A DNA stretch of 49,837 nt from Candidatus Woesearchaeota archaeon UBA153 (GTDB lineage: Archaea; Nanobdellota; Nanobdellia; Woesearchaeales; UBA525), in the NCBI GenBank assembly GCA_002503705.1, contig DASH01000093.1:1-49837 (forward strand), read 5' to 3'. Below the pieces are notes generated by a model. It worked only from the letters and a program-made list of their open reading frames with translations. It was not told the origin of the DNA and made no database searches. Position 1 is the first letter of the stretch. Each line of letters opens with the position of its first letter. A program made the translations under genes and the position numbers. Positions 8,692-48,643 of the stretch are shown here, one piece after another.

Positions 8692-11093
8692 CGGTGAACA
8701 TGACGGTGAACGATACGGTGAACGAGCAGCGCCCCGGCCGGAGCTACGGTTACGAGGACGGAACGCTCATCCGGAACAAGCCGTCGACCTCGTGGCGGTG
8801 GTGGCTCGCCCTTTTCATCGCACTCCTGCTCATCCTCGGGTTCTGGTTCGCGCTCGACCAGAAGCTGCTCTTCGGCGAGGCGTGGCTCTCCGAGACGTAC
8901 GATAACGTCGACTGGCGCACGAACGAGGGCAACCTCCACACGTTCGGCGCGTGGGATCTCGAGGCGCACATCTGGAAGACCGAGTATATCATGCAATGGT
9001 TTCCGAACTTCCATTGGAACCCGTACTGGTATCTCGGCATGCCGCTCCTCAAGTATTACCAGTCAGGATTCTACGTGGCCCACTGGCTCACCATCATGGC
9101 GACGGGGCTCTCCGCCCCGCGCGCCGCGCTCATCCTCATCATCTTCAGCCACTTGCTCGCCACGCTTGTCACCTTCCTCCTCTGCTACAAGCTCTCGCGA
9201 CGCGTCTTGGTCTCGGCGCTCGCCGCCACGTTCGTGCTGAGCAACACGTTCATCTCGCTCCGCAGCTACGGCTGGGAGCCGATCACCGTCACGTTCCTCT
9301 TCCTCTTCCCCCTCGGACTCCTCCTCTTCTTCAAGGAGCCGCTCCGTCCGTTGCGGTTCTGGCTCATCCTCCTCCTCGGCATCGCGTACCTCTGCCATCC
9401 GCTCCTCTGGTTCTCGCTCTGCATGACGATGGGACTCTACCTCTTCTCCATCGCGATCAGGAAGACGAAGGAGCCGAATGGCGCGTACCGCCATTACCTC
9501 TGGCAGTACTTCGTGCTCGTCTTCTGCAGCATCATCATCGGCGCAGTCCAGTTCCTCCCTCAGATCAGCTATCAGCAGGCGAGTTCGGGAGCGCACATGG
9601 GCGTGACCTACTTGCCGTTCTACCAAGTGCCGCCGAACATCATCACGTTATGGGATTTCTTTTTCGATGCGGGCAACCTCAAGGGGCCAGGGCCTATCAT
9701 CATGATCGCGTTCTTCCTCCTCCTCTTCTTCGGCGTCGTCGAGTACTTGGCTTGGCGGGCGCGCAGGAAACAGAAAGCGGGAAATCTTCGAGCGGGAAAT
9801 CTTCGAGCGGGAAATCCTCAAGCGAACAATCTTCCTGCGGGAAATCCTCGAACGGGCGATCTCGCAACGCAATCTCACGACGGACACTCAGGAATCTTCT
9901 CGCACGAGCTCGTCGCGGGCCTCGCCTTCGTCCTTGTCGTCATGGTCCTCTTCTACTATCTCGAGCGCTTCAACATCTTCCCGATGAACGTGCTGCGCTC
10001 CATCCAATACCATCGCATCATCCCGGAGTTCATCATCGTCGCGGCCGCGCTCATCGCCGTCATCGCCAACATCGCCAGGACGCAGTGGCAGAAGGCGGTC
10101 TATTACACGGTGCTCATCGCCTTCGTCGCCGCCTCGACAATCGTGATCTACAACGTCCAGACGCATTGGCAGACGACCGACAGCATCAGCGACAAGCCGG
10201 AATTCCTCACCGACACGATTCCGGGACGTATCAGCATGCCGTACACCGACCAGAGCCTCTCCGTGCGGAGCTCGTTCCAAGCCATCCCGCAGACCTACGG
10301 CTACTACGAGCAAGGCATCACGAACGCGTACGACGACGAGATGTTCTCCGTCTCGTCAGGGTACCACAACGCCGACCTCACCACCCTCTACCTGAAAGCG
10401 GCGAACGTCGGACGCCTCTACGTCAATACGGAGGAAGGCGAGCGCGACCGGATCGTGCAGAAGCGGCTGAACAGCACGCTTTCGTACGTCCACGAGCCGA
10501 AGAGCCGTTACGCATACTTCGCCGTGCCCCTCGCGAACCCCGCGTTCGCCCAGGCGGTCGACTCAAGGGCGGCGTCGAACGTGACCGCGCTCGCTCCTGG
10601 TTGTCGCGTCCTCTTCATGGAGACGTATTGCGGCAGCGTGGGAGAAGAGTTCGTCAGCACCGATCCTGTCGAAGTGCGCTACCTCGCGGCGTACGTCGAG
10701 CTCCTCGAGAAGCCGGACGCCGCCACGGTGACGATGACGATGAAAGACCCGGACCATTACTTCATCGCGGTGCACAACGCGAGCGTGCGGACGGCGGTCG
10801 TGGTGAAGATGACGTACGACAAGGACTTCGTCGCCACCGTCAACGGCTACGAGGTGCCGATAACGAAGTTCGGCCCGGACTTCATGCTCATCTCCCCCGC
10901 GAGAGACGGCACGTACGGCATCATACTCGAGTATCGGGTCGACAAGCTCATCATCATCGGCGCGTTCATCAGCGTCCTCAGCATCCTCGGCCTCGCGCTC
11001 GCGTTCCTTTTCCGGCAACCTTTGCTCGCGCGCTTTGAAAAGATCAAGAAGAGGCACTGCCGTCTCCCGGACGGCGAAGGGGTGGGCCGATGA
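8688..11093 (+). CDS. Large polytopic membrane protein with C-terminal extracytoplasmic domain and terminal TM; YfhO-like GT-C glycosyltransferase candidate
   Basis: The start is taken at the ATG overlapping the upstream stop (ATGA). The track ORF from 8460 is an upstream extension in the same frame. There are more than 10 hydrophobic helices. The motif HIWKTEYIMQWFPNFHWNPYWYLGMPLLKYY resembles YfhO-type proteins. A soluble region of about 200 aa precedes the final TM LIIIGAFISVLSILGLALAFLF. Confidence 0.6.
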   Translation: MTVNMTVNDTVNEQRPGRSYGYEDGTLIRNKPSTSWRWWLALFIALLLILGFWFALDQKLLFGEAWLSETYDNVDWRTNEGNLHTFGAWDLEAHIWKTEYIMQWFPNFHWNPYWYLGMPLLKYYQSGFYVAHWLTIMATGLSAPRAALILIIFSHLLATLVTFLLCYKLSRRVLVSALAATFVLSNTFISLRSYGWEPITVTFLFLFPLGLLLFFKEPLRPLRFWLILLLGIAYLCHPLLWFSLCMTMGLYLFSIAIRKTKEPNGAYRHYLWQYFVLVFCSIIIGAVQFLPQISYQQASSGAHMGVTYLPFYQVPPNIITLWDFFFDAGNLKGPGPIIMIAFFLLLFFGVVEYLAWRARRKQKAGNLRAGNLRAGNPQANNLPAGNPRTGDLATQSHDGHSGIFSHELVAGLAFVLVVMVLFYYLERFNIFPMNVLRSIQYHRIIPEFIIVAAALIAVIANIARTQWQKAVYYTVLIAFVAASTIVIYNVQTHWQTTDSISDKPEFLTDTIPGRISMPYTDQSLSVRSSFQAIPQTYGYYEQGITNAYDDEMFSVSSGYHNADLTTLYLKAANVGRLYVNTEEGERDRIVQKRLNSTLSYVHEPKSRYAYFAVPLANPAFAQAVDSRAASNVTALAPGCRVLFMETYCGSVGEEFVSTDPVEVRYLAAYVELLEKPDAATVTMTMKDPDHYFIAVHNASVRTAVVVKMTYDKDFVATVNGYEVPITKFGPDFMLISPARDGTYGIILEYRVDKLIIIGAFISVLSILGLALAFLFRQPLLARFEKIKKRHCRLPDGEGVGR
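8691..8726 (+). repeat. 3 x 12-nt in-frame tandem repeat at the CDS 5' end (TVNM TVND TVNE)
   Basis: acggtgaacatg acggtgaacgat acggtgaacgag, directly after the start codon. Confidence 0.85.
9777..9866 (+). repeat. 6 x 15-nt in-frame tandem repeat encoding pentapeptide AGNLR-type units
   Basis: gcgggaaatcttcga x2, then the variants gcgggaaatcctcaa, gcgaacaatcttcct, gcgggaaatcctcga and acgggcgatctcgca. Protein: AGNLRAGNLRAGNPQANNLPAGNPRTGDL, in a loop between TM segments. Confidence 0.85.
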
Positions 11094-12448
11094 GCGCTGA
11101 GAGGAAGAGGTTCTGGCCGCGGTGGAAACTCGCTCTTCTCGGGAGCATCCTGCTCCTCTACGTCGGCGTCGGCGTCCTCCTCCTGCTCCTCGTGCATGAA
11201 GGGGTCATCGAGCGGCTCCCCCCGACTCCGATAGCCGTCGCCGGCAATGATTCGATCCAAGAGCCCGTCACGCTTGAGGTGAGCGTCAATCTCAGAGCGG
11301 CAGAGGCTTTCTTCCAGACGCAGATGATTCGAGAAGACGGCCACATCTTCCTCTACCGTCTCGTCACGGAGGACGGTACGTCTGCGAATGACAGCAACAC
11401 GAACAGTGAAGCGGCGAGCTACTACCTGCTCTGGACCGCGCAGGCGAAGCAGAAAGGGGCGTTCGATACGGAACTCGCCTTCGTGGAGACCAAGATGCTC
11501 CACCCCGTCGGAGACTACCTCCAGTGGCGGCTCTCCGAGAACGGCATGGTCGAGAGCGATGGCGGGAACATCGCTTCCGACGCCGACCTGCGCGCAATCA
11601 GAGCGCTCCTCATCGCCGAGAAGCAATGGGGCGACGAGCGGTACACGTCGCTGATTGACACGCTCGCGCGCGGTCTCGAACAGACCGCGTTCACCAAAGA
11701 CGGGCTTCTCGCGCCGTATGGCGGGATGTCGGGAACGAAGCCGTGGATTGCGGACGAGTCATGGCTCTCCTACAGCGACTTCACCGTCTTCAAGGCGCTC
11801 TCCGAGCGGCGTGGCGTGGCGTGGTTGAAGATGTACGCGAAGATGAAGTCTGCCGTTCTCGGCGCGCAGATCCAGAACGGGCTCTACAATTCACAGATCA
11901 CCCTGCAACGCCAGTACGGCAACGGCATCGACGGCGGCGGCTACAGCATCAACTCGATGTGGCTCATGGCGAGGAACGCGGAGAGCGGCGATCCTGACCT
12001 CGTCGCCTCGGCGAGCCGATCGCTCGCCTTCTACAAGCAGGCGTTCAGCCGGAACGCGGAGATTGACACGCTGTACGACTCGAATGGCGACGCCCTCTCG
12101 TCCGGCGACGCGCCGTGGGTGTACGCGCTCATCGGACGGGCGGCGGTGGCGCTCGGCGACCGCGAGTTCAGCGACGCCATGCTGGCGAAACTTGTCGAGA
12201 AGCAGGACATGGACTGCTCGTCGCCGCACTACGGTTCGTTCCCCGAGGGCGTGTCGGGCAACGGGCGGCAGGAGCGCGTCGGCCAGTTCACCATGCAGGA
12301 GGCGATCCTGACGATGCAGGCGTACGTGCAGAGTCGAGGGGGGGCTCTCGACGCGCCGATTGGGCAGGCCGGAGATGCGGTCGCGGCGTGCGAGGAGGAG
12401 ACGCACGACGCTTCACCATCAAAGAATCGTGAGAAAAGAGAGTCGTGA
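11090..12448 (+). CDS. Membrane-anchored glycoside hydrolase family 8 endoglucanase-like protein (BcsZ-like role)
   Basis: N-terminal TM LALLGSILLLYVGVGVLLLLLV. Catalytic-Glu motif NSEAASYYLLW (compare SEGQxYGML). GH8 signature-like ASDADLRAIRALLIAEKQW. The ATG overlaps the upstream stop (ATGA). Confidence 0.75.
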   Translation: MSAERKRFWPRWKLALLGSILLLYVGVGVLLLLLVHEGVIERLPPTPIAVAGNDSIQEPVTLEVSVNLRAAEAFFQTQMIREDGHIFLYRLVTEDGTSANDSNTNSEAASYYLLWTAQAKQKGAFDTELAFVETKMLHPVGDYLQWRLSENGMVESDGGNIASDADLRAIRALLIAEKQWGDERYTSLIDTLARGLEQTAFTKDGLLAPYGGMSGTKPWIADESWLSYSDFTVFKALSERRGVAWLKMYAKMKSAVLGAQIQNGLYNSQITLQRQYGNGIDGGGYSINSMWLMARNAESGDPDLVASASRSLAFYKQAFSRNAEIDTLYDSNGDALSSGDAPWVYALIGRAAVALGDREFSDAMLAKLVEKQDMDCSSPHYGSFPEGVSGNGRQERVGQFTMQEAILTMQAYVQSRGGALDAPIGQAGDAVAACEEETHDASPSKNREKRES

Positions 12449-12489
12449 GAAAAGAGAATCGTGAGAAAAGAGAATCGTGAGAAAAATAC
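12421..12489 (+). repeat. About 4 x 16-nt tandem repeat spanning the stop codon of the GH8 gene
   Basis: Repeat tract gaatcgtgagaaaaga gagtcgtgagaaaaga gaatcgtgagaaaaga gaatcgtgagaaaaat. The stop TGA at 12446-12448 is part of a repeat unit. Confidence 0.85.
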
Positions 12490-12520
12490 TTGTGGGGAAA
12501 AACTACGGAGATGATACCCA

Positions 12521-15792: not shown

Positions 15793-15878
15793 ACGATTGT
15801 TGAGCTGGTCGTTGAGCGCGTCATTGTGAGCGAGTCATTGAGCGAGTCCTTGAGTGGGCTGTTGACTACGTCGTCGAT
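15793..15878 (+). repeat. Degenerate tandem array of about 12 nt (about 6-7 units), consensus gtcRttgagcgN
   Basis: cgattgttgagctg gtcgttgagcgc gtcattgtgagcga gtcattgagcga gtccttgagtgg gctgttgactac gtcgtcgatg, in the intergenic region upstream of the 13291-15555 gene. Confidence 0.6.
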
Positions 15879-17136: not shown

Positions 17137-17410
17137 CTGACCGGACCGGACAATCAAGACCACATCCGCGTCCGGCGCATCTCACTCTTCAAAGATATCC
17201 CTGAAGATGTCTCGACGAGATTGCCGACGGGGGGACGTCGCCGGCACGTCTTTGAAAAGAGTGCCCTTGGCAAATGCGTCTTTGAGGTGCCATGACGATG
17301 CAAGAACTGCGAAAACGAGAACGACAGCGATCAATTCATTCCACAATGCCTTCCCTGCCGAGGCATTCTCCCTCTCTTCATTCCCCGCCCACTCATCCTC
17401 TGGCTCTTCA

Positions 17411-17470
17411 TTCCCCACTCATTCATTCCCCACTCATTCATTCCCCACTCATTCATTCCCCACTCATTCA
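17411..17470 (+). repeat. 4 x 15-nt perfect tandem repeat (ttccccactcattca) with degenerate flanking units
   Basis: Perfect units at 17411, 17426, 17441 and 17456. Degenerate copies extend to about 17377 and 17483. It lies just upstream of the preferred start at 17504. Confidence 0.9.
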
Positions 17471-17503
17471 TTTTCCATTCATCTCCGCCAGGAGGCGCTC
17501 CCT

Positions 17504-22458: not shown

Positions 22459-22665
22459 GTGGTTGTGACGGGGCGCGGTCGCCTTTATTAATATTCGGCA
22501 AGCGAGTTTTTACACGAGAAAAATTAATTTCTCTATGGAAAGTTATTCTTTTCGCGACGCTCTCGTGTCACCATCGCGTCACCATCGCGTCACTCTTGCG
22601 ACACTCTCGCGTCACCATTGCGACACTATTATAATACTACTGTTAAGTGAGGAATTTTTAGAAAA

Positions 22666-24733: not shown

Positions 24734-24815
24734 AATTGAGACGTATGGGGGTGTGGGGTGGCACCATCATCCTCGACCTCTTCCCACTTTCGCCACGCGT
24801 TCTCTTTTTCGTTGA

Positions 24816-24946
24816 ACGCCGTTGCCGTCCTGCTTGCTCTTTTGTCGCGTTCCTCGAGATGCGGGTCCTTCCCGGGTGGCACGACCCCTCCCGCATCAGC
24901 TTCTTCTCCTCGATGCAACGCTCGCCCTTAAGGACGGCAACGGTGT
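24816..24946 (+). ncRNA. Family A structured element, copy A1 (131 nt, shortest)
   Basis: Closing helix ACGCCGUUGCCGUCC / GGACGGCAACGGUGU (15 bp, one G-U that pairs only on the plus strand). Inner helix GAUGCGGG / CCCGCAUC. The 3' junction GCAACGCUCGCCCUUAAGGACGGCA is identical over 25 nt to copy A2. Confidence 0.55.
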
Positions 24947-24948
24947 CG

Positions 24949-25230
24949 TCATCGTTCATCCCTTCTTCCTTCCCATCCTAAGAACCGGCAGATCTCCTCT
25001 TTCTTTTCCGGGTTGAGGCTGACGTGCCACTCGCCGGTCTTCTTCATCCGCAGCAGGAACCCGTTACGATAGAGTTCTTCGATGGCCTCGGTCGTCTCTT
25101 TCCGGCCGCGCAGGTGCTTCGGCAGGCATTTCGTCAGGTTGACCGCTTCCGTGTGCGACGCGCCCCACTTCGCTGGATGGAAGTTCATCAGCTTCCAGAT
25201 TATTCGCACCTGGATTTCTCGTTGGTCCAT
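24949..25230 (-). CDS. Small winged-helix DNA-binding protein
   Basis: 93 aa: ...TEAVNLTKCLPKHLRGRKETTEAIEELYRNGFLLRMKKTGEWHVSLNP, that is a recognition helix plus a beta-wing pattern. TATA-like gtgtttatattgc is centred about 24 nt upstream on the minus strand. Confidence 0.6.
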   Translation of the reverse strand: MDQREIQVRIIWKLMNFHPAKWGASHTEAVNLTKCLPKHLRGRKETTEAIEELYRNGFLLRMKKTGEWHVSLNPEKKEEICRFLGWEGRRDER

Positions 25231-35398: not shown

Positions 35399-35636
35399 CC
35401 TCATTCACCTCGTTCGTTCTGCTCTTCTCGCGGTCTTCGCCGCTCTTTTTTGTATGCTTCAACCCTTCAATCCCGCTTTTGAGAAACGTGAAAAATATTT
35501 CACACTTCCGCAAGTTTTATATACTAGGAACTCTTTTGACGCTCAAACAACTGATTGAACCAAGGGCGAATCGCTCAACGAGGCGCGCTCAACTTGACTC
35601 GTCCAACTTGACTCATCAGACAACGAGGTGGTCTCC

Positions 35637-36275
35637 ATGAAAAAACACGTCATCATCGCCCCACTCGGCGGGCCGAGCGAAACCATCTTCATCGGCATCA
35701 AAGAGTTCCCGACGGAAAGAGTGGTCCTCATCGCGCGCCCCGACGACCTGCGGGAAGCGGAGAACATCAAGAAAGACCTGGCGCGCTTCAAAGTCCCCGC
35801 CGCCATCGAGCGCATCAACGGCCCCTTGTGGGACGAGACGTTCCGCATCGTCAAGGAGATAGCGGCCGCGACGCCGAAAGAGTTGGAAGTCCTCATCAAT
35901 GTCGCTTCCGGCAAAGAGATGATGCGGTGCGCGGCGACGAGCGCGTCCTTCGTGAACGGCCTGAAAGCGTTCGGCGTGGATGAGCAAGGACAGGTCGTCC
36001 TCCTCCCCGTCCTCAAGTTCAGCTACTACACCTTGCTGAGCGACCGGAAGATGAAACTCTTATCCCTGCTCGCGCAAGAGGACTGCTGCGCCAGCCTGGA
36101 AGAGATCAGCCGTCGCACCAAGATGAGCCTCAGCCTCGTCAGCTATCACATCAACGGCAACCTGAAAAGCGAAGGGTTGAAACAGCTCGGCCTCATCGAG
36201 ACTGCGGAGCAAAGCGGCAGGGTTCACGTCAGCCTCACCACGATGGGACGCTTGCTGCTGAAAGGGTACGTGTAG
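35637..36275 (+). CDS. Csa3/HFX_2341-like regulator: CARF-like Rossmann N-domain plus C-terminal winged helix
   Basis: KKHVIIAPLGGPSETIFIGIKEFPTERVVLIA...INVASGKEMM (CARF-like strand-loop motifs). C-terminal LLSLLAQEDCCASLEEISRRTKMSLSLVSYHINGNLKSEGL (wHTH). ATG preceded by gaggtg. Confidence 0.6.
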   Translation: MKKHVIIAPLGGPSETIFIGIKEFPTERVVLIARPDDLREAENIKKDLARFKVPAAIERINGPLWDETFRIVKEIAAATPKELEVLINVASGKEMMRCAATSASFVNGLKAFGVDEQGQVVLLPVLKFSYYTLLSDRKMKLLSLLAQEDCCASLEEISRRTKMSLSLVSYHINGNLKSEGLKQLGLIETAEQSGRVHVSLTTMGRLLLKGYV

Positions 36276-36325
36276 GCATCGTCGACTTCGTGTCTTGTTC
36301 GGCCGCCGCATAGGTGGGTACGTCG

Positions 36326-36454
36326 CTGGCGCGGTAAAATTCATGGTCGTCATCGTGCGTCACCGTACGACATGATGCTGTTGCCGGACGAGAAAATCAC
36401 GACGTACGCTGTCGAGAAAATCCGTGCCGCGCCAGCATTGACGGGCAATGCCCG
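36326..36454. repeat. Family B structured repeat, copy B1
   Basis: CUGGCGCGG (36326-36334) ... CCGCGCCAG (36427-36435), then hairpin CGGGC-AAU-GCCCG (36442-36454). Shares GCUGGCGCGGYAAAAWUCAUGGUCGU and CGAGAAAWUCCGUGCCGCGCCAG with B3, and the 19-nt GGACGAGAAAAUCACGACG with B2. Confidence 0.55.
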
Positions 36455-36500
36455 ACTCGCAATTGCGGAAGCGACGATGTAGCGGTCGCTTTCTCCACAA

Positions 36501-36512
36501 CCCATAAAAACC
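36501..36512 (+). promoter_or_regulatory. TATA-like box for the 36533 gene
   Basis: cccataaaaacc, centred about 27 nt upstream of the ATG at 36533 (leaderless). Confidence 0.45.
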
Positions 36513-36532
36513 CCTCCGCGTATCGTGCGGCC

Positions 36533-37279
36533 ATGCCGCCGCCGAGACTCCCGAAAGGCAACCAGCCGCCCATGCCGCGCATGAAACGCGACGTGGAAGC
36601 AGAAGACGCGCCGCAAGGGTCGGAGTGGAAGGAGAACCTCGTCGCGCTCATCGTCGTCGCGATCGTCGCAGTCTCCGCCTACCTCCTCCTCTCCGGCACG
36701 CTTTTCCCAGAACCCGTCCCTGTCCCGCTCGAGAACCGAACGTTCCTCATCAGCACTGGCGGCGACCCGCGCCTCGGGAGCGACGACGCGCCCGTCACGA
36801 TCATCGCGTTCATCGACTACGACTCCCCCTCGTGCAACGACTTCATGCGCGACACGCTCCCCCGGCTCAAGATGGACTACCTTGACCCTGGCACGGCCAG
36901 TCTCGTCATCCGCAACTTCCCACTCGAAATCCACGCTGACGCCCTGCCCCTCGCGATCGCCGCGACGTGCGCGGACGACCAAGGAAAATTCTGGGAGATG
37001 CACGACGCGATTTTCGCGCACGACGGCGCGTTCACGAGCGCGTGGATGGGCGAGACGGCGCGACACCTCGGCCTCGATGCAGCGTCGTTCGCCGCGTGCA
37101 ACGCCGACCCCGCGACGGCGAGCCGCATCGATGAAGACGTGCGCGAAGCCATCACTGCCGGCGGCGTCTCCTCCGTGCCCACGTTCTTCATCGACGGGCG
37201 ACGGCTCGTCGGCAATCGACCGTACGAAGAGTTCACCGCTCTCATCGACCGGGGAGCGGCGCAAAGCGGGAAAATATAA
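36533..37279 (+). CDS. Membrane-anchored DsbA-family thioredoxin-fold protein with SPSC in place of CxxC
   Basis: TM LVALIVVAIVAVSAYLLL. APVTIIAFIDYDSPSCNDF...FPLEIHADALPLAIAATCADDQGKFWEMHDAIF...GVSSVPTFFIDGRRLVG. Confidence 0.7.
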   Translation: MPPPRLPKGNQPPMPRMKRDVEAEDAPQGSEWKENLVALIVVAIVAVSAYLLLSGTLFPEPVPVPLENRTFLISTGGDPRLGSDDAPVTIIAFIDYDSPSCNDFMRDTLPRLKMDYLDPGTASLVIRNFPLEIHADALPLAIAATCADDQGKFWEMHDAIFAHDGAFTSAWMGETARHLGLDAASFAACNADPATASRIDEDVREAITAGGVSSVPTFFIDGRRLVGNRPYEEFTALIDRGAAQSGKI

Positions 37280-37303
37280 AAGGGGCTCTTCCTGGGAGAC
37301 GCC

Positions 37304-37975
37304 ATGCGCCATCACGGGTCTGAACGGGTCGGCTTCCTCTTCCTCCTCGCCTTCCTCCTCTTCGCGATCATCCTTCTCCTCACGACGTGCACTCCCGCGG
37401 CGGAGACGGAAGATTGCGGCGTCGAAGCGGCGAAACGGGAATCGTTCGTCCAAGACTTGGTCGCCGAGAACACGGCGATGCGGAACAACCTCGACCTGCT
37501 CCACGAGACGCTCTTGCGGTGCGAAGTCCTCGCGCTCGAAGAGAACGAGACGCTCGGCATGTGCATCGACCGGTTGCAACAGCTCAGCGAGGCGCCGTTA
37601 GAGCGCGAACACCCGTACGCGCGCATCCCCGTCGAGAAGATACGGTTCTCTCCGGACGCGGTCACCATCCGGGTGCCGGGCGTCACGCCCGTCACGCTCG
37701 CCGACACGAACAGCATGGACCCGCTCGCCGACGCCGACACGAAAGTCCTCGTCATCAAGCCCGTGACGGCGCGAGACTTGCACGTCGGCGACATCATCGG
37801 CTACCGCTGCTCGACGTGCACCGAGGACGAGATCATCATGCATCGCATCGTCGCGATCGCCGAGGACGCGCAAGGCGTCTTTTACACGCTGAAAGGCGAC
37901 AACAACCCGGAACCGGACCCGGACAGGGTGCGATTCTCGCAAGTCGAAACGGTAGTCGTTGGAATAATATATTGA
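37304..37975 (+). CDS. S26-family signal peptidase I-like protein with long N-terminal TM plus coiled-coil extension
   Basis: TNSMDP (Ser box), GDIIGY, IIMHRIV (His box), LKGDNNPEPDP. N-terminal TM FLFLLAFLLFAIILLL. Confidence 0.7.
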   Translation: MRHHGSERVGFLFLLAFLLFAIILLLTTCTPAAETEDCGVEAAKRESFVQDLVAENTAMRNNLDLLHETLLRCEVLALEENETLGMCIDRLQQLSEAPLEREHPYARIPVEKIRFSPDAVTIRVPGVTPVTLADTNSMDPLADADTKVLVIKPVTARDLHVGDIIGYRCSTCTEDEIIMHRIVAIAEDAQGVFYTLKGDNNPEPDPDRVRFSQVETVVVGIIY

Positions 37976-37982
37976 TCCTTCA

Positions 37983-38155
37983 GCGACGCTGCCGTCCTTA
38001 AGGGCGAGCGTTGCTGCCGGGATAACAACAGATGCGGTGGGGGTCGCCCCGTGTTCGGGCAGAGCCCTCACGGGTCGCTCCGGGGCGTCGCGACCATCCG
38101 GGGGGAATCGCACACGACGTCCTGCATCGAAGAGCGAGCTGGACGGCAGCGTCGC
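37983..38155 (-). ncRNA. Family A structured element, copy A2 (173 nt, minus strand)
   Basis: RNA sense: closing helix GCGACGCUGCCGUCC / GGACGGCAGCGUCGC (15 bp). 5' junction AGCUCGCUC and 3' junction CGCUCGCCCUUAA are identical to A3. Inner helix UGCGAU / ACCGCA with flanking UCCCCCC and CCCCC. Confidence 0.55.
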
Positions 38156-38180
38156 AGCACGCCGAAAAAGCAGGTAACGG

Positions 38181-38357
38181 CTGGCGCGGCAAGAAGTCAG
38201 AGTCCGAATCGAAGTTCGACGACAGACGAAACGACGACGTTCATGGACGAGAAAATCACGACGGACGAGAAGAACGCGACGCACGACGGACAAGAACTGC
38301 GAAACGCGCGAGAACGAGGAACTCCGGGCCGCGCCAGCACGAACCGGGCACCGCCCG
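38181..38357. repeat. Family B structured repeat, copy B2 (longest)
   Basis: CUGGCGCGG (38181-38189) ... CCGCGCCAG (38329-38337), then hairpin CGGGC-ACC-GCCCG (38345-38357). It starts 25 nt from the end of A2. Confidence 0.5.
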
Positions 38358-38372
38358 ACCCCTCATTCGGAA

Positions 38373-38384
38373 AACTATAAAAAC
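38373..38384 (+). promoter_or_regulatory. TATA-like box for the 38406 gene
   Basis: aactataaaaac, centred about 27 nt upstream of the ATG at 38406. Confidence 0.45.
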
Positions 38385-38405
38385 TCGAGAGTGGTGACTG
38401 AACCC

Positions 38406-38663
38406 ATGCCTTCCCAACGCGCGCTCATCTTCCTCAGCATCCTCGTAGCCTTGCTCCTGCTCGGCGCGGTCGCCACGTTCACCGGCCTCGTCACGTACCA
38501 GGACACGGACGCGGGCGTCGTCGTCCGGCCGGACAACGTCGTCACGTTCGAGAACGGCGACCTGCGAACCTGCTGCACGTTCACCCTCGACGGCGAGCAG
38601 AAGACGTGCAGCGTCCTGCAACAGTACGACTGCAGTTATTGCAACGAGTACTGCGCGACGTAA
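38406..38663 (+). CDS. Small membrane-anchored or secreted Cys-rich protein (85 aa)
   Basis: MPSQRALIFLSILVALLLLGAVATFTG..., then 7 Cys in the last 40 residues (CC...C...C..C...C). The ATG is chosen from TATA spacing. The track ORF begins at GTG 38391. Confidence 0.6.
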   Translation: MPSQRALIFLSILVALLLLGAVATFTGLVTYQDTDAGVVVRPDNVVTFENGDLRTCCTFTLDGEQKTCSVLQQYDCSYCNEYCAT

Positions 38664-38672
38664 GAAGAATTC

Positions 38673-38984
38673 TTACCGTTTCCTGAGCGCGACTTCCGCC
38701 GCTTGCTCTTCCAAGTCTTTGATGCGGTGGCGTATCTTCTGGCAGAACCAATACTTGTCCCGCTCGTCCTTGATGAGGTGGAAGAGCACTTCGTCCTCGA
38801 GCACGTCGAGAATCCACGCGGCGAAGTCGTTCCGCGTCCCGATGACGTGCGTGCGGAAGACGTCCTCGCCCGTGTGCTCGATCGTGTCGACGAGACTGTA
38901 GATGTTCATCGCGCGCGTCCCGTTGCAGAACCAGAACCCTTTATCCGGTTGGACGTCTCGTAACGGATCTATCACGCAGCTCAC
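38673..38984 (-). CDS. Small conserved hypothetical protein, paralog of 30510-30770
   Basis: GFWFCNGTRAMNIYSLVDTIEHTGEDVFRTHVIGTRNDFAAWILDVLEDEVL aligns with RFFLHEGGELASLEDLFTELQSMKPHVFQHHVNADKNDFAVWVRDVMQDRFL. Confidence 0.65.
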   Translation of the reverse strand: MSCVIDPLRDVQPDKGFWFCNGTRAMNIYSLVDTIEHTGEDVFRTHVIGTRNDFAAWILDVLEDEVLFHLIKDERDKYWFCQKIRHRIKDLEEQAAEVALRKR

Positions 38985-39096
38985 CTCTCCTTCTCGTTGC
39001 TCTCAGCGTTTCAGTATTAATACTTAATCGTTTTTTGCTGAGCGCGAGCTCAGTACCGTGCAACGATGTTCGGTGGACGCGTAGTCCAGTACGCTG

Positions 39097-39202
39097 CTGG
39101 CGCGGCAAAAATCATGGTCGTGGTTCTGAACGGTACTGCTGTACTCGCGGGAACTTTGACGAGAAATTCCGTGCCGCGCCAGTACTGACCCGCCGCGGCG
39201 GG
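39097..39202. repeat. Family B structured repeat, copy B3 (shortest)
   Basis: CUGGCGCGG (39097-39105) ... CCGCGCCAG (39174-39182), then hairpin CCCGC-CGCG-GCGGG (39189-39202). The flanking CAGUA/UACUG can extend the helix across a 5-nt bulge. Confidence 0.55.
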
Positions 39203-39326
39203 CGTCCATCTTGCCGAGATTGAATATCGTTGAAAACGACCATTTTTCTCGTGTTTCCACTTTCGAGTGGAGAGAACTATTTATAAGGCTTGTCGGCTTA
39301 CGTTGTAAGAAGAAAGGGGGTTTTTG

Positions 39327-40535
39327 ATGCTCACGCTTGACTTGCATACGTTACCGGGAGACTTCTCAATCCTCCACGAGAAACTCGCGCAGATTAAGAA
39401 CTCGCCACGGCCAGCGTTCGCGAACTACGCTCCGGACTACGGGGTCCTGTATAGCCTCGCGGGCAAGTACGCGGGGACGACGCACTTCATCATCATCGGT
39501 CGCGGGGGCAGCGTGACCGGCTTCAAGGCCTTGTATGACGCGCTCGCCGCGATGAAGACGTCGAAGAAGGTCCACCTGCTCGACACGATCGACCCTGACT
39601 ATACGGCGTACTTGCAACGCACCTGCCACCCCGACGACACGCTCGTCATCGCGATCAGCAAGAGCGGCGATACCGTCGACGTCTTGGAGAACCTGCTGTG
39701 CTTCCCACACCATAAGAAGATCGTCGTGACGGAGAACAAAAACGGCGCGTTGGCGAAGTTCGCCGAGGCGAAACAGTTGGAAGTCGTCAAGCACCCGTCC
39801 ATCGGCGGCAGGTTCTCGACGGGCACGGAGTGCGCGTTCCTGCCGGGAGCGCTCATCTACGTTGACGTGCGCAGCGTCGGCGGCGGCTTGAACGCCATCC
39901 ACGCCGCATGCGACCCGTCGCAACCAATCGAGCGGAACCCGGCGTTGCGCCTCGCCGCCGCCCTCTACTTGGCGGAGCAGAAAGGCCTGACGGAAGTCTA
40001 CGCTCCCCTCTACAGCAAGGCGCTCGCGGGGTGCGCGGAACTCTTCACGCAACTCTTGCACGAGAGCGCGTGCAAGCAAGGGCGAGGCCAGACGTTCTTG
40101 TTCATGGAGGCGCCGGAGTGCCAGCACCACAGCAACCAGAAGTTCTTCGACGGTCCGCGCCGCATGGCCGGCGTTTTCACGCGCGTCGAGCGGCCGGAGC
40201 ACGACGTCTCGATTCCGGAAGACCCTGTGGCCTCCTCGGTCGTCGCCCCCGGCATCCCGCTCAAATCGTTGCTGGGCGAGCGTCTCGCGGACGCGATGCG
40301 GTTCGAGTATGAAGGCGTGCGCGGCGCGGCCGATGCCTCGAACATCCCGAATGCGACGGTCACACTCGATGTCTTGAATCCCGGCACGTTGGGCGAGCTG
40401 ATCGGCTTCTGGGAGTACGTCGCCGTCTACTCCTCGTTGCTCCGGAACGTTGACCCGTTCGACCAGCCCGGCGTGGAAGCGTCCAAGCGTTTGAGCCGCG
40501 AAAAGCGTCTGGAAGCCCTGAAACCGCGTTATTAG
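39327..40535 (+). CDS. pgi: Glucose-6-phosphate isomerase (SIS-domain PGI family)
   Basis: IIIGRGGSVTGFKAL, ISKSGDTVDVLENL, GGRFSTGTECAFLPGAL. ATG preceded by aaaggggg. TATA-like ctatttataagg at 39278-39289. Confidence 0.8.
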   Translation: MLTLDLHTLPGDFSILHEKLAQIKNSPRPAFANYAPDYGVLYSLAGKYAGTTHFIIIGRGGSVTGFKALYDALAAMKTSKKVHLLDTIDPDYTAYLQRTCHPDDTLVIAISKSGDTVDVLENLLCFPHHKKIVVTENKNGALAKFAEAKQLEVVKHPSIGGRFSTGTECAFLPGALIYVDVRSVGGGLNAIHAACDPSQPIERNPALRLAAALYLAEQKGLTEVYAPLYSKALAGCAELFTQLLHESACKQGRGQTFLFMEAPECQHHSNQKFFDGPRRMAGVFTRVERPEHDVSIPEDPVASSVVAPGIPLKSLLGERLADAMRFEYEGVRGAADASNIPNATVTLDVLNPGTLGELIGFWEYVAVYSSLLRNVDPFDQPGVEASKRLSREKRLEALKPRY

Positions 40536-40616: not shown

Positions 40617-43451
40617 ATGACTACTGTTCAGGAACTACTAATAAGAGTTTTGTTGGGGGAAGTGCAAACCATGTCGTTCGGCGTGACTTCAATCAGACGT
40701 TGGCTCTCAGACTGGAAACCGGGAGCGACCCTGTACGCCGGCATCGGCGCCACCCTCCTCGCAGGCTTCTTGAACGCGCAAACCATCCAGACGGCAAACC
40801 TGCACACAATCAAGCACGGCGACAACCTCACCAAGATCGTCAAACAATACTATCCGGAACTCCGGACTGACCGGGAAGTCGCGAACAGAGTTCTCGAGAT
40901 CCAAGCGGACCCTGAGAACGCGGAAGCGTTCAACCTTGGCGATAACAGCGGACGAGACTGCATCGGTTTCACCGGAAAGACTGTGGAAGGCAACTTCGTA
41001 CGCGACCCGGTCCAACCTGTGACTGGGTGCTTCCCGGACGGCCAGTACGACAAACTCGTCCCGGGCACGGTGCTCCACTTCCCGGACGCGGTCGAGACCA
41101 CGGTGCAGACACCGGTCGTCGTTGCTGAACCCGGCGCTCCGACTTCAGTCGTCGCAACACCCAGTGCTCCAGCCGCCGTCGTCACGCCCGCACCCGTCAT
41201 TCCGCAATTCGTCGAGCCAGACGTGAACGCGCCCCCTTTCTCGAAGTCGAAACTCGTGAACCCTGAAGCGACCCTCGAAGAGACCGTCGCCGCGACACCA
41301 ATCACCTCGATGCCACCGTCGAGTTCTTCGTATATCGGCTACGCGCCGTTCGAACCAACACCCTCTTCACTCCTGCAAGAACGGCGTGAACCCGCGTTCC
41401 CGGAAAGCCCGACGGCGAACCCGCTCGACGACCGAGGGACGGAAACGTGGTTCCGGAACCGTTACGTTGTCGAGTCGACCCTCGCCGACCGGTTCAAGGG
41501 CTGCCTTCCCTACCTCGGTGCCGCCGCGCTGGCCGTCGGCCTCCTCGCGTACGGCATCGTCCGCCAACGCCGTGAACAACACGCCGCGCCCGTCGACCTT
41601 GACGTGCTCCTCGCCGATGACGTGCCTTCGGTCGAAGTGGAGGCCGCATTGAAGGCTGAAGAGCACCCCGTGACGGTCAAGCTCCTCGAAGTCGCGGAAG
41701 GCTACTTGCCGCCACGGGCCGTCCGAAATTTGTACTCGCTCTTCCACCCGCTCGGCGTCTGCGGGCTCAGACGGGAAGAGAGGCTCGACCCCGGCCTCGA
41801 CTTCTCGAACTCGACCGACGCGCCCACGAATGTGCCGTTCGAACCGGTCAAAGACCCCGGCTACGTCCCGCCCGCGCTCCAAGAACGCTTCGATGAAGGG
41901 GCTGGTTTCGGCACGACGCCACCGTCGGTCTCGGGGACGGTCACGCCCGCGCCCGTCGCGCCCTTGCAACCCTTCACCACGGAGACTGCGGAAGAGGCCA
42001 TCCCGATTCCGCCGTTCCCCCCGCTCTTGCCGGATGATGAGCGAGAACGCTTGCCAGGACGAGAACAACCAGTCTTGGAACCCTCGATTGAAGCGCCGGC
42101 GCCGAAACCGGCCGAGCCCATACCGTTCTCCGAACCCGCGCCGTCGCACGAACAGCTCATCAAGGCGCTCCAGGACAAGAGCTTGCCGGCGTACTATCGC
42201 AGAGTCTACGTTCAAGAGAACTTGCAGAACCTTCCGGAATCGGTGACGCAAGCCCTCAAGATTCAAAGAGAAGAAGGAGAAGGACCGGGAGGTTTTGGTG
42301 TGGACAGGGCGAAATATGTCACGCAAGCGCCGAATGGACGAGTCACCGCGGAACTCCCCGAACCAGTCCCTTCCGTCGTCGCGCCGACAACCGCGACCTC
42401 TCTTCCTCCCGATGCACCGCTCGACTTGACAGCTGTTGGAGCGGAAGTCAGACGGGTCCGGAACTTGAAACGCTTGAATCTCATCGCCGAAGTGACTGGC
42501 GTTCCACCGCCAACACTTTCTTCGGACGAGCCGTCCGTTTACGAGAGAGCACTCGGACTCGAACCGCCCGTCGAAGTCCCGCCCCTGCCTTCGCTGGAAG
42601 AGCCGCGAGCCACCGAGCCCGTGAACACCTCTCGGCTTAACTTCGGCGGTCCGCCAATGGACGATACGATTGATAGCGCCGTCGAGGCACGGCTCAACCC
42701 CGTCGAGTCTCCCCCCGTCGACACGAGCAAGGTCATCATGTCGGTCAGGGCGAAGAAAGATAAAGACCCCGACAAGAACGGCGGCAGCGGAACACCACCG
42801 ACTGACAACGGCCCCTTCAACCTCACACCGCCTCCAACTGGCGGTTCGGCAGCCGCGCCGTTGAGCAATCTTGTCGCGTTCACCGAGCCTTCACCGTTGA
42901 GCAGCAAGAACCTCGCGTCCATCATCGCCGAGACGTACCGGACGGACCGTGCCGCGGCTCGAAGCATCTACCAGAAGCTCGCGCCGGACGAACAGCTCGA
43001 CACCGTCAAAGAACTGTACCGAGCGCCGGTCGTGGCCATCAAGCAGCGCGGCCTCGCCGGCGCGCGCCACTCCGCGAACTACGTCTCAATCGACAACCTC
43101 GTCGACCTCACCGGCGCGGTGAACAAGTACGAACAGCTCCGCACGCTCGACGCTGCTGGAGTCCTCAGCCACGGCCGCGCCGCCGCGCAGAAAGAGTACG
43201 TGGCCGCGCGACGGGACGACGCGGAACTCCTGTACGACAACGGTATCGCCGTCAAAGACATCGCGCAGCAGCTCGGCGTGAGCGCGTCCACCGTCTATCG
43301 TGACTTGAAAGTCCGGCGTGACGTGAAGGGCGCCGCGACGAGCGAGTACAAGGCCTCCGACGCGAAACGAGTCTCCCCGGCCGCGCGAGCGTACGCTGGT
43401 CGCACGACGCCGGCCGCGACCGCACAGCCTGCGGCGCCGACGATGAACTAG
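40617..43451 (+). CDS. LysM-domain, TM-containing, proline-rich protein with C-terminal helix-turn-helix
   Basis: LysM: HTIKHGDNLTKIVKQYYPEL. TM: LPYLGAAALAVGLLAYGIV. A long P/E/A-rich low-complexity region follows. C-terminal HTH: NGIAVKDIAQQLGVSASTVYRDLKVRRD. Alternative start ATG 40671 (MSFGV...). Confidence 0.7.
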   Translation: MTTVQELLIRVLLGEVQTMSFGVTSIRRWLSDWKPGATLYAGIGATLLAGFLNAQTIQTANLHTIKHGDNLTKIVKQYYPELRTDREVANRVLEIQADPENAEAFNLGDNSGRDCIGFTGKTVEGNFVRDPVQPVTGCFPDGQYDKLVPGTVLHFPDAVETTVQTPVVVAEPGAPTSVVATPSAPAAVVTPAPVIPQFVEPDVNAPPFSKSKLVNPEATLEETVAATPITSMPPSSSSYIGYAPFEPTPSSLLQERREPAFPESPTANPLDDRGTETWFRNRYVVESTLADRFKGCLPYLGAAALAVGLLAYGIVRQRREQHAAPVDLDVLLADDVPSVEVEAALKAEEHPVTVKLLEVAEGYLPPRAVRNLYSLFHPLGVCGLRREERLDPGLDFSNSTDAPTNVPFEPVKDPGYVPPALQERFDEGAGFGTTPPSVSGTVTPAPVAPLQPFTTETAEEAIPIPPFPPLLPDDERERLPGREQPVLEPSIEAPAPKPAEPIPFSEPAPSHEQLIKALQDKSLPAYYRRVYVQENLQNLPESVTQALKIQREEGEGPGGFGVDRAKYVTQAPNGRVTAELPEPVPSVVAPTTATSLPPDAPLDLTAVGAEVRRVRNLKRLNLIAEVTGVPPPTLSSDEPSVYERALGLEPPVEVPPLPSLEEPRATEPVNTSRLNFGGPPMDDTIDSAVEARLNPVESPPVDTSKVIMSVRAKKDKDPDKNGGSGTPPTDNGPFNLTPPPTGGSAAAPLSNLVAFTEPSPLSSKNLASIIAETYRTDRAAARSIYQKLAPDEQLDTVKELYRAPVVAIKQRGLAGARHSANYVSIDNLVDLTGAVNKYEQLRTLDAAGVLSHGRAAAQKEYVAARRDDAELLYDNGIAVKDIAQQLGVSASTVYRDLKVRRDVKGAATSEYKASDAKRVSPAARAYAGRTTPAATAQPAAPTMN

Positions 43452-43475: not shown

Positions 43476-43653
43476 GTGCGAGTGCCGTCCAGCTCGCTCA
43501 TTGTTGAGAATGTCGAGTGCGGTTCCCCCCGTGAGTCACGGCGACGGAACGTCGCCGGGAAGTTGGAAACGTTCCGTTCCCAACTGGACTTCCCCCACCG
43601 CAACCGCTTCTTCCCTCGCTTCCGTCGCTCGCCCTTAAGGACGGCACTCGCAC
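43476..43653 (+). ncRNA. Family A structured element, copy A3 (178 nt)
   Basis: Closing helix GUGCGAGUGCCGUCC / GGACGGCACUCGCAC (15 bp perfect). Inner helix UGCGGU (43518-43523) / ACCGCA (43597-43602). Internal hairpin CGGCGACG-GAA-CGUCGCCG (43539-43557). T5 at 43657-43661. Confidence 0.6.
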
Positions 43654-43741
43654 TCGTTTTTCCTTTCTGTCTCATGTCTCAAAAGCAAACTTTTTAAATG
43701 CCCTTCTCGGTGGGGCGAGGGTAGAGCGTGAGTGTGGGACT

Positions 43742-48110: not shown

Positions 48111-48589
48111 TGAGCGGCTTTCTTGGACGGAACATCAATTTCGCGCTCTTCCTCTTGGTGCTCGTCGTCGTCTTGATTGGCGCGGGGACGACGGTGTTGT
48201 ACTATAAGGGGTTGAGCGAGCGGACTTCGCAGTACGAGACGACGAGTCTTAACTTGACGCAATGCTTGACGTCGCTTGCCAACTACCGGAACGTCCTTTT
48301 GACGCGCGAGAGCGAGCTGAACGAGACGAGCCAGGACATTCGGAAATACGACCTCCTGTACAGTCAGAAGCAGAGCGAGCTCACCGACGCGCAGAAAGAC
48401 TTGGATGAGACGAAGCGACAATTGACGAGCACGATCCTCCAGAAGGAGCAGTACAAGTCGCAGATGGAGCAGAAGGCGACGGAGGTCGCGCAGAAGACCG
48501 CGCAGATTGTGAAGTTGGAGGCGCAGGTCGACGCGCTCAAGACGAAAGTCGCGGATTTGGAAGACGACCTCAGCGCGTGTAGTGGTTAG
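48110..48589 (+). CDS. TM-anchored coiled-coil protein
   Basis: The ATG overlaps the upstream TGA by 1 nt. TM FALFLLVLVVVLIGAGTTVLY, then heptad-rich Q/E/K/L sequence. Confidence 0.65.
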   Translation: MSGFLGRNINFALFLLVLVVVLIGAGTTVLYYKGLSERTSQYETTSLNLTQCLTSLANYRNVLLTRESELNETSQDIRKYDLLYSQKQSELTDAQKDLDETKRQLTSTILQKEQYKSQMEQKATEVAQKTAQIVKLEAQVDALKTKVADLEDDLSACSG

Positions 48590-48643
48590 GAGTGGTGAGG
48601 ATTTGTTAGGAGTGGTGAGGATTTGTTAGGAGTGGGTGGGATT
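48586..48643 (+). repeat. About 3 x 20-nt tandem repeat spanning a stop codon
   Basis: ttaggagtggtgaggatttg x2, then ttaggagtgggtgggatt. The stop TAG at 48587-48589 is inside unit 1. Confidence 0.85.

Follow-up and report, generated by a model that had tools for sequence, protein, structure and literature searches.

Among described repeats, the nearest to the one reported here (family B) is SMR-A of Haloquadratum, and the bacterial hairpin MITEs of the Correia and ERIC types are also close. SMR-A of Haloquadratum walsbyi (HqIRS42/43/55) is a non-coding element of about 110 bp with inverted repeats and no target duplication; these inverted repeats are unrelated to any known transposon, and the mechanism of mobilisation is not known (PMC3119063). 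The SMR-A copies are more than 95% alike, possess terminal inverted repeats and insert into palindromes of IS605-type elements (PMC3119063). Family B is equally archaeal and non-coding, has cores of 86-157 bp, lies beside palindromes and carries prominent inverted repeats without kin among known transposons, again with no target duplication. Unlike SMR-A, its copies are heterogeneous (57-67% mean column identity), no IS605-type element is found nearby, conservation continues past the inverted repeat into two flanking hairpins, and the interior contains an iterated motif. There is no sequence similarity between SMR-A and family B.

Correia/NEMIS elements of Neisseria and ERIC/IRU elements of enterobacteria are intergenic sequences of 100-160 bp that form one long hairpin, fall into size classes defined by internal segments, and often lie beside promoters or are co-transcribed with neighbouring genes; in Correia elements the terminal inverted repeats are 26 bp long and the target duplication is TA. 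The intergenic position, the single long-hairpin fold, the size classes by internal segments and the nearness to promoters are shared with family B, which differs from Correia elements by an 11-bp internal inverted repeat, the lack of a visible duplication, the archaeal host and the absence of sequence similarity. Compared with SMR-A, Correia and ERIC together, family B stands apart in four respects: the internal repeat, the flanking hairpins, the iterated motif and the heterogeneity of its copies.

Three further systems share some of these properties. REP/REPIN sequences are short GC-rich extragenic palindromes with a 5' GTAG outside the stem, usually found in tens to hundreds of copies together with a single RAYT gene. 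They are similar to family B in vertical persistence, conserved sequence, lack of target duplication and compensatory hairpin changes. In family B, however, GTAG is seen only as part of a GCGTAG made up of the 5' hairpin loop and the first base of its stem, in just three of seven copies, and no RAYT gene was seen in the window (the whole stretch of 49,837 bases analysed); with the placement of GTAG and the RAYT gene both failing to correspond, an assignment to REP/REPIN was set aside. Integron attC sites, those of archaeal integrons included, are imperfect inverted repeats of 57-141 bp located after genes, with RYYYAAC/GTTRRRY boxes, an integrase and mobile cassettes. Like family B they follow one another in the same orientation, lie after genes and have a structure that is partly more conserved than the sequence. 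The boxes are missing from family B, in which the linkers are of GTACGTCG type (5') and CAYNGAC type (3'), no integrase was found, and relatives without the elements keep the same gene order, so the genes between copies are not cassettes; attC sites were rejected on these grounds. Intergenic invertons also have short inverted repeats around an asymmetric segment directly upstream of a gene, and one copy of family B is flipped. Family B differs in having no evident promoter inside the segment, no invertase nearby and only one orientation seen per locus. In archaea, 12 putative invertons were described in 42 genomes (bioRxiv 10.1101/2023.03.11.532203).

Architecture and distribution of family B

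Family B is an unannotated non-coding repeat of about 130-200 bases, one copy of which is present in each of three spacers between genes of a small DPANN archaeon with high GC (61%). The 9-mer CTGGCGCGG or its complement occurs seven times in the window, against a mean of 1.35 expected from shuffles, and seven occurrences were reached in none of 100 shuffled windows. Six of the seven form three inverted pairs on the plus strand, in agreement with the original prediction of three same-strand pairs of a 9-bp inverted repeat enclosing 68-139 nt. The copies (B1, B2 and B3) occupy three consecutive spacers within 3 kb and consist of the following parts:

36294-36324, plus strand: B1 5' module, CTTGTTCGG, with hairpin CCGCC-GCATA-GGTGG at 36303-36317 (one G.T pair) and linker GTACGTC
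36325-36436, plus strand: B1 core, arms GCTGGCGCGGT (36325-36335) and GCCGCGCCAGC (36426-36436), two GACGAGAAAATC-type units inside
36326-36334 and 36427-36435, plus strand: B1 9-bp inverted pair, enclosing 92 nt
36437-36454, plus strand: B1 3' linker and hairpin CGGGC-AAT-GCCCG
38180-38338, plus strand: B2 core, 11-bp arms and a purine-rich, T-poor interior of 137 nt with about four GACGAGRAAATC-like units
38181-38189 and 38329-38337, plus strand: B2 9-bp inverted pair, enclosing 139 nt
38339-38357, plus strand: B2 3' linker and hairpin CGGGC-ACC-GCCCG, 17 nt before the promoter box CTATAAAAAC (38375-38384)
39065-39095, plus strand: B3 5' module, GATGTTCGG, with hairpin TGGAC-GCGTA-GTCCA at 39074-39088 and linker
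39096-39183, plus strand: B3 core, arms around 66 nt in which a short hairpin and one GACGAGAAATTC unit are found
39097-39105 and 39174-39182, plus strand: B3 9-bp inverted pair, enclosing 68 nt
39184-39202, plus strand: B3 3' linker and hairpin CCCGC-CGCG-GCGGG

Further elements of the original prediction were recovered at the same time, namely the blocks common to B1 and B3 just inside both arms, the 19-nt block common to B1 and B2 (GGACGAGAAAATCACGACG), the conserved 3' linker (CATTGAC in B1, CACGAAC in B2, TACTGAC in B3) and the 5-bp GC hairpins ending at 36454, 38357 and 39202. The inverted repeat itself is 11 bp long, not 9 (GCTGGCGCGGC / GCCGCGCCAGC, with wobble at the end in B1 and B3), and the unit is larger than first described: a 5' GC hairpin (loop GCRTA) is followed by the 11-bp arm, the interior, the inverted arm, a CAYNGAC-like linker and the 3' GC hairpin. 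The inverted repeat appears to lie inside the conserved unit rather than at its ends, and the element is pseudo-symmetric, with hairpin, linker and arm on both sides. Homology among the copies extends about 30 nt upstream and about 20-35 nt downstream of the inverted repeat. Between B1 and B3 it starts about 30 nt upstream of the 5' arm, with (C/G)(T/A)TGTTCGG and a 5-bp hairpin of loop GCATA/GCGTA that had been overlooked. This 5' hairpin is present in B1, B3 and two of the copies from other metagenomes (L098 and L114, see below), while no GCRTA hairpin is found upstream of B2. An HMM of the flanks alone matched the B1 5' module at 36295-36323 and found no hairpin modules without a core, i.e. 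no 'empty' outer element.

Across seven copies the 11-bp helix shows zero substitutions apart from wobble at its ends, so that the earlier statement that the closing helix does not covary holds for all of them. Both flanking hairpins do vary, with double compensatory changes in three of five pairs of the 5' hairpin and likewise in three of five pairs of the 3' hairpin; one uncompensated mismatch is present in the 3' hairpin of copy L044. The blocks adjacent to the arms differ between the 5' side (CAAAAGTCATGGTC) and the 3' side (ACGAGGAAATCCGKG), and the interior (66-137 bp between the 11-bp arms) is asymmetric too; it contains one to four direct GACGAGRAAATCMCG units. The direct repeat units are spaced about 18-24 bp apart. 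Zero to three extra copies of a unit resembling the 3' block (GGACGAGRAAATCACGACG) lie in the interior and make the plus strand purine-rich and T-poor. Interiors differ from each other by gain or loss of whole repeat units.

No fourth copy was detected by profile-HMM and covariance-model search in the other 47 kb of the window. Sequence collections were scanned with GRAANTCCGNGCCGCGCCAG, a permissive pattern for the 3' block, and the matches listed, mostly chance matches in bacteria, were then filtered for the 5' arm; four true members were found among the matches listed. The family thus comprises at least seven copies at six loci, B1-B3 and at least four in other metagenomes. One of the four, L044 (Ga0316624), is the ortholog of B2, situated between the signal peptidase gene (80% nucleotide identity) and the same promoter. 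The other three are contigs of a single metagenome, Ga0172379, with unrelated gene contexts:

L077: divergent spacer before the gene of a small acidic protein
L098: convergent spacer after a THUMP methyltransferase gene
L114: upstream of a PIN-domain gene

Family B is regarded as a repeat family not described before and confined to one clade. In kind it probably belongs to something known, but its architecture is unusual.

Family B also attracts spurious gene calls, for example a 36-aa ORF inside B1. This public gene call (36372-36482 of the window; 5714-5824 of Logan copy L001) lies wholly within B1 and its 3' flank and is most likely spurious.

Gene context and empty sites in relatives

The local order is a Csa3-like HTH gene, B1, a DsbA-like gene, signal peptidase, a copy of another repeat (Family A), B2, the gene of an 85-aa Cys-rich protein, a 103-aa gene on the minus strand, B3 and phosphoglucose isomerase (PGI). 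The 223-aa protein encoded between B1 and B2 is signal peptidase I, with homologs named Nanoarchaeota or Woesearchaeota, and the PGI homologs carry names of the same type. The short distance between copy and A/T box noted in the original prediction was reproduced, the three copies ending 48, 17 and 74 nt before boxes at 36503, 38375 and 39277. A position upstream of the promoter of a downstream gene applies to six of the seven copies. The prediction of leaderless mRNAs failed for PGI: its gene is preceded by a short leader, about 19 nt in length, that includes a purine-rich stretch. B1, B2 and L044 are downstream of co-oriented genes, and B3 and L077 are in divergent spacers with no co-oriented gene upstream. 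The genes downstream of the copies (DsbA-like, Cys-rich small protein, PGI, PIN protein, small acidic protein) are functionally unrelated.

The window locus has the same sequence in three assemblies. The 49.8 kb of the window code for neither a transposase nor a recombinase, and no IS605-type gene or Y1 transposase is among the genes. Between PGI and the BatA/VWA cluster lies a gene for a 944-aa proline-rich protein (40617-43451), whose sole domain match is a C-terminal resolvase-type HTH and which is missing from the corresponding position in L235 and in the contig carrying P0124. It was rejected as a candidate recombinase, being proline-rich with only the C-terminal HTH.

Around B3, a T6 run followed by the hairpin CTGAGC-GCGA-GCTCAG (39028-39057) is found between the promoter of the minus-strand 103-aa gene and the element, and a T5 run (39243-39247) after it; together these could bound a transcript of about 190 nt containing B3. 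A palindrome, CCACT-TTCG-AGTGG (39257-39270), lies 6 nt upstream of the PGI promoter box, and a related TCCACTC..G.G motif occurs at the equivalent place in relatives (L235, 11270-11300; L238, 4815-4850; L239, 1510-1545; L442, 1145-1165). It looks like a conserved operator for a putative regulator of sugar metabolism.

Other repeats were observed in the window as well. A second structured repeat, probably the Family A of the original prediction, occurs at 24800-24950 (minus strand), 37985-38153 (plus) and 43500-43655 (minus), as well as at 1240-1399 of L437, where its 5' block follows the signal peptidase gene. Its common sequence is GCCGTCCTTAAGGGCGAGCG ... GAGCGAGC(T/A)GGACGGC, and its outer helix differs from copy to copy yet stays complementary (GACGCTG/CAGCGTC, CCGTTG/CAACGG, GTGCGAGTG/CACTCGCAC). 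One copy lies immediately beside B2, a TTTAAAAA box precedes the copy near 43.6 kb by about 45 nt on that copy's strand, and no Rfam match was obtained for this repeat. A tandem-repeat scan listed many short arrays with units of 10-30 nt (12423-12501, 17351-17472, 22552-22628, 48581-48635, 15796-15854 and 6991-7045). The first of these, four copies of a 16-nt unit (AGAATCGTGAGAAAAG), covers the last part of a GH8 gene as well as the spacer that precedes a cytidylyltransferase gene; its different unit led to its rejection as a form of the family B interior motif. A 15-nt tandem repeat (AGCGGGAAATCTTCG, 5.4 copies, 9776-9865) inside a 695-aa ORF encodes REIFE-like pentapeptide repeats and was likewise rejected as coding and unrelated, despite a similar GGAAATC core.

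For comparison, GCA_028279755.1, GCA_964500685.1, GCA_964604855.1 and several metagenome contigs were used as relatives. They are fairly distant (signal peptidase 41-56% and PGI 64-67% identical to the window proteins) and keep the gene order HTH, DsbA, signal peptidase, small protein, PGI. Family B sequence was undetected at all of their syntenic loci by HMM and covariance model. At the B1 and B2 sites their spacers measure 34-70 nt and contain only the conserved promoter with the same box; in L235 the signal peptidase stop codon is directly followed by AAAACTATAAAAGCT, which in the window is the box downstream of B2. The spacers before PGI (128-181 nt) hold no family B copy either. Insertion in the lineage of the window and L044 would be the simplest reading of these empty sites, which are too diverged to fix the exact borders of the element. 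In relative L238, the 420-nt spacer preceding the DsbA gene contains a 51-nt direct repeat in two copies (2270-2390), and other members of the clade therefore carry different intergenic repeats at the site of B1.

The orthologous pair B2/L044 allows conservation to be followed at one locus. Arms and 3' block are 93-100% identical and the core promoter 24/24, against 45-59% for the adjacent spacer and 75% for third codon positions. It follows from this contrast in identities that the arms have stayed constant at one locus since the divergence of the two organisms; arms and 3' block appear to be under purifying selection, conserved as strongly as the promoter.

L077 is the flipped copy mentioned above. 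Scored with HMMs built from the other six copies, its core matches the minus strand (624-663) and its arm-linker-3'-hairpin module the plus strand (686-715, 17 bits, E about 1e-5), so the core is inverted relative to the side of hairpin and promoter. Since the element is pseudo-symmetric, this single case is suggestive of a real inversion rather than proof of it.

Explanations for family B

As family B copies are absent from the same gaps in relatives, the most likely explanation is a small mobile or duplicating DNA element. More precisely, family B is tentatively interpreted as a lineage-restricted, non-autonomous DNA repeat of the MITE or small-mobile-repeat type, in which the inverted repeat and the iterated motif are putative protein recognition sites; a probability of about 45% is given to this reading. 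The family would have spread into intergenic spacers of one high-GC DPANN clade of Woesearchaeota type. Invariant arms and iterated motif could be bound by a trans-acting protein, possibly a transposase or recombinase encoded elsewhere in the genome, which would copy and perhaps also invert the element. The flanking hairpins might act as single-stranded signals, either in DNA during mobilisation or in read-through RNA, and copies may be retained in the interval from a stop codon to the following promoter, where they cause little damage.

This reading as a DNA element explains the dispersal, the empty sites, the invariant inverted repeat, the differences in length that amount to whole units, the lack of structure in the interiors, the inverted core of L077 and the clustering in the window; the presence of copies in three consecutive spacers fits local spread. 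A MITE-like element had been named in the original prediction as a live alternative to an RNA, and the empty syntenic sites, the invariant arms, the unstructured long interiors and the flipped core speak for it. Family B resembles MITEs in being short and non-coding, dispersed among several loci, and missing from the syntenic sites of relatives. On the other side, the inverted repeat appears to be internal, no transposase with matching ends was found, and, as noted originally, no target-site duplication is visible, with no direct repeat beside the arms or the outer hairpins in any of the seven copies. A transposase-bearing element with the same termini, which would have identified the copies as MITEs, was found neither in the 49.8-kb window nor in plasmids, phages and viral contigs. 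No similar DNA was found in the latter three, and two scans of viral contigs with both arms and a gap returned about 200 unrelated loci. Translated minus-strand frames of the element gave no match in a protein-database search at E up to 10.

Two observations are left unexplained by a DNA element, unless it has a host role or there is selection for mobility: the hairpin covariation and the conservation at the level of the locus. Recently active mobile families are usually more than 90% alike, unlike the heterogeneous copies of family B. The conservation of the arms in the orthologous pair looks like selection at the locus, beyond competence for transposition, and the compensatory changes in both flanking hairpins fit an RNA equally.

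A structured RNA family is the rival to be taken most seriously and has real support, though it is considered less likely than a DNA element. The repeat would then be a 3'-UTR or read-through element, or a small RNA, in which the 11-bp helix clamps a loop that displays one to four single-stranded, purine-rich GACGAGRAAAUC motifs to an RNA-binding protein (as sponge or platform), with the hairpins protecting the ends. The original prediction of an RNA closed by a 9-bp helix gains from the compensatory double changes in both flanking hairpins and loses from the main helix, which never varies in seven copies. Three wobble pairs, possible on the plus strand only, are present in B1 and B3. Whole elements fold better than shuffles (z -1.6 to -5.0), but the folding energy favours the plus strand in four copies and the minus strand in three, with no consistent bias. 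The interiors alone gave z values of +0.17, +1.9 (B2), -1.96 (B3), -0.11, -1.21, -1.9 and +0.27; the long ones (+0.17, +1.9, -0.11 and +0.27) are no more structured than shuffles, and only the interiors of short copies fold better than shuffles by themselves. No structure is conserved in the interior, and an unstructured interior bearing motifs would suit a protein sponge. The apparent purifying selection on arms and 3' block also agrees with an RNA, and B1, B2 and L044, which follow co-oriented genes, could be transcribed by read-through. No such gene precedes B3 and L077 in their divergent spacers, and neither a promoter nor a T-run terminator is conserved across the copies. The uncompensated mismatch in the 3' hairpin of L044 is a further argument against an RNA, as is the core of L077, which, inverted with respect to the hairpin module, would give a different RNA. 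Rfam yielded no match at the gathering score for the window and, with the threshold relaxed to E 10, nothing relevant for 35500-40000. Hammerhead, H/ACA, box C/D, K-turn and bulge-helix-bulge structures were rejected by eye, the required boxes being absent or unconserved across copies. No tRNAs were found.

An invertible DNA switch is improbable. Here the interior of 66-137 bp would be turned round between the 11-bp repeats by a site-specific recombinase, which would change the side that faces the downstream promoter. The perfect, invariant inverted repeats around a short asymmetric segment, the position immediately upstream of the promoter of a co-oriented gene in six of seven copies and the paralogous copy L077, with its interior opposite to the hairpin-promoter side, are all in line with this, and archaeal chromosomal invertons have barely been explored (bioRxiv 10.1101/2023.03.11.532203). 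At no locus, however, were both orientations observed; the three assemblies that cover the window locus agree completely. The window contains no recombinase gene, no promoter-like A/T box is conserved in the segment, the spacing between copy and promoter ranges between 17 and 74 nt, and in a pseudo-symmetric element L077 may simply carry an unusual 5' hairpin. That family B constitutes a set of DPANN inversion switches, with a trans-acting recombinase acting at the 11-bp repeats to give phase-variable control of several unrelated genes in a very small genome, is likewise a long shot.

A regulatory module acting as double-stranded DNA is given just as little credence. The inverted 11-bp sites and the direct GACGAGRAAATC array would be putative regulator sites that activate, repress or insulate the adjacent promoter. 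A sequence that is invariant rather than covarying would be expected from such sites, and the direct repeats about 18-24 bp apart, the position upstream of promoters, the conservation equal to that of the promoter in the orthologous pair and the Csa3-like HTH gene directly upstream of B1 all point the same way. Relatives, however, have the same cluster, HTH gene and promoters with no element; the copies lie at varying distances from the promoter, the genes downstream of them have unrelated functions, L098 is directed at the 3' end of a convergent gene, and the hairpin covariation is left unexplained.

A replication origin was rejected, with no AT-rich unwinding region, no orc1/cdc6 gene and no skew switch. 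Explanations beyond those listed are given very little weight. Least credible of all is a functionless local triplication or chance similarity, the outcome foreseen originally if no further copies were found: all window copies do lie within 3 kb, but copies at unrelated, non-homologous loci in other metagenomes refute a triplication alone, and the seven occurrences against 1.35 expected and the apparent purifying selection on the arms argue against it too.

Implications for compact archaeal genomes

DPANN archaea have very compact genomes, and in relatives the promoter of a gene follows directly on the stop codon of the gene before it. Having widened such spacers four- to ten-fold, a repeat family of this sort would be a new example of how small repeats persist in reduced genomes. 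If the flip in L077 is a real inversion, family B would represent a set of DNA switches in archaea, which have received very little study. The family retains an unchanged 11-bp inverted repeat across species, and would point to a protein partner, be it a transposase, a recombinase or an RNA-binding protein.
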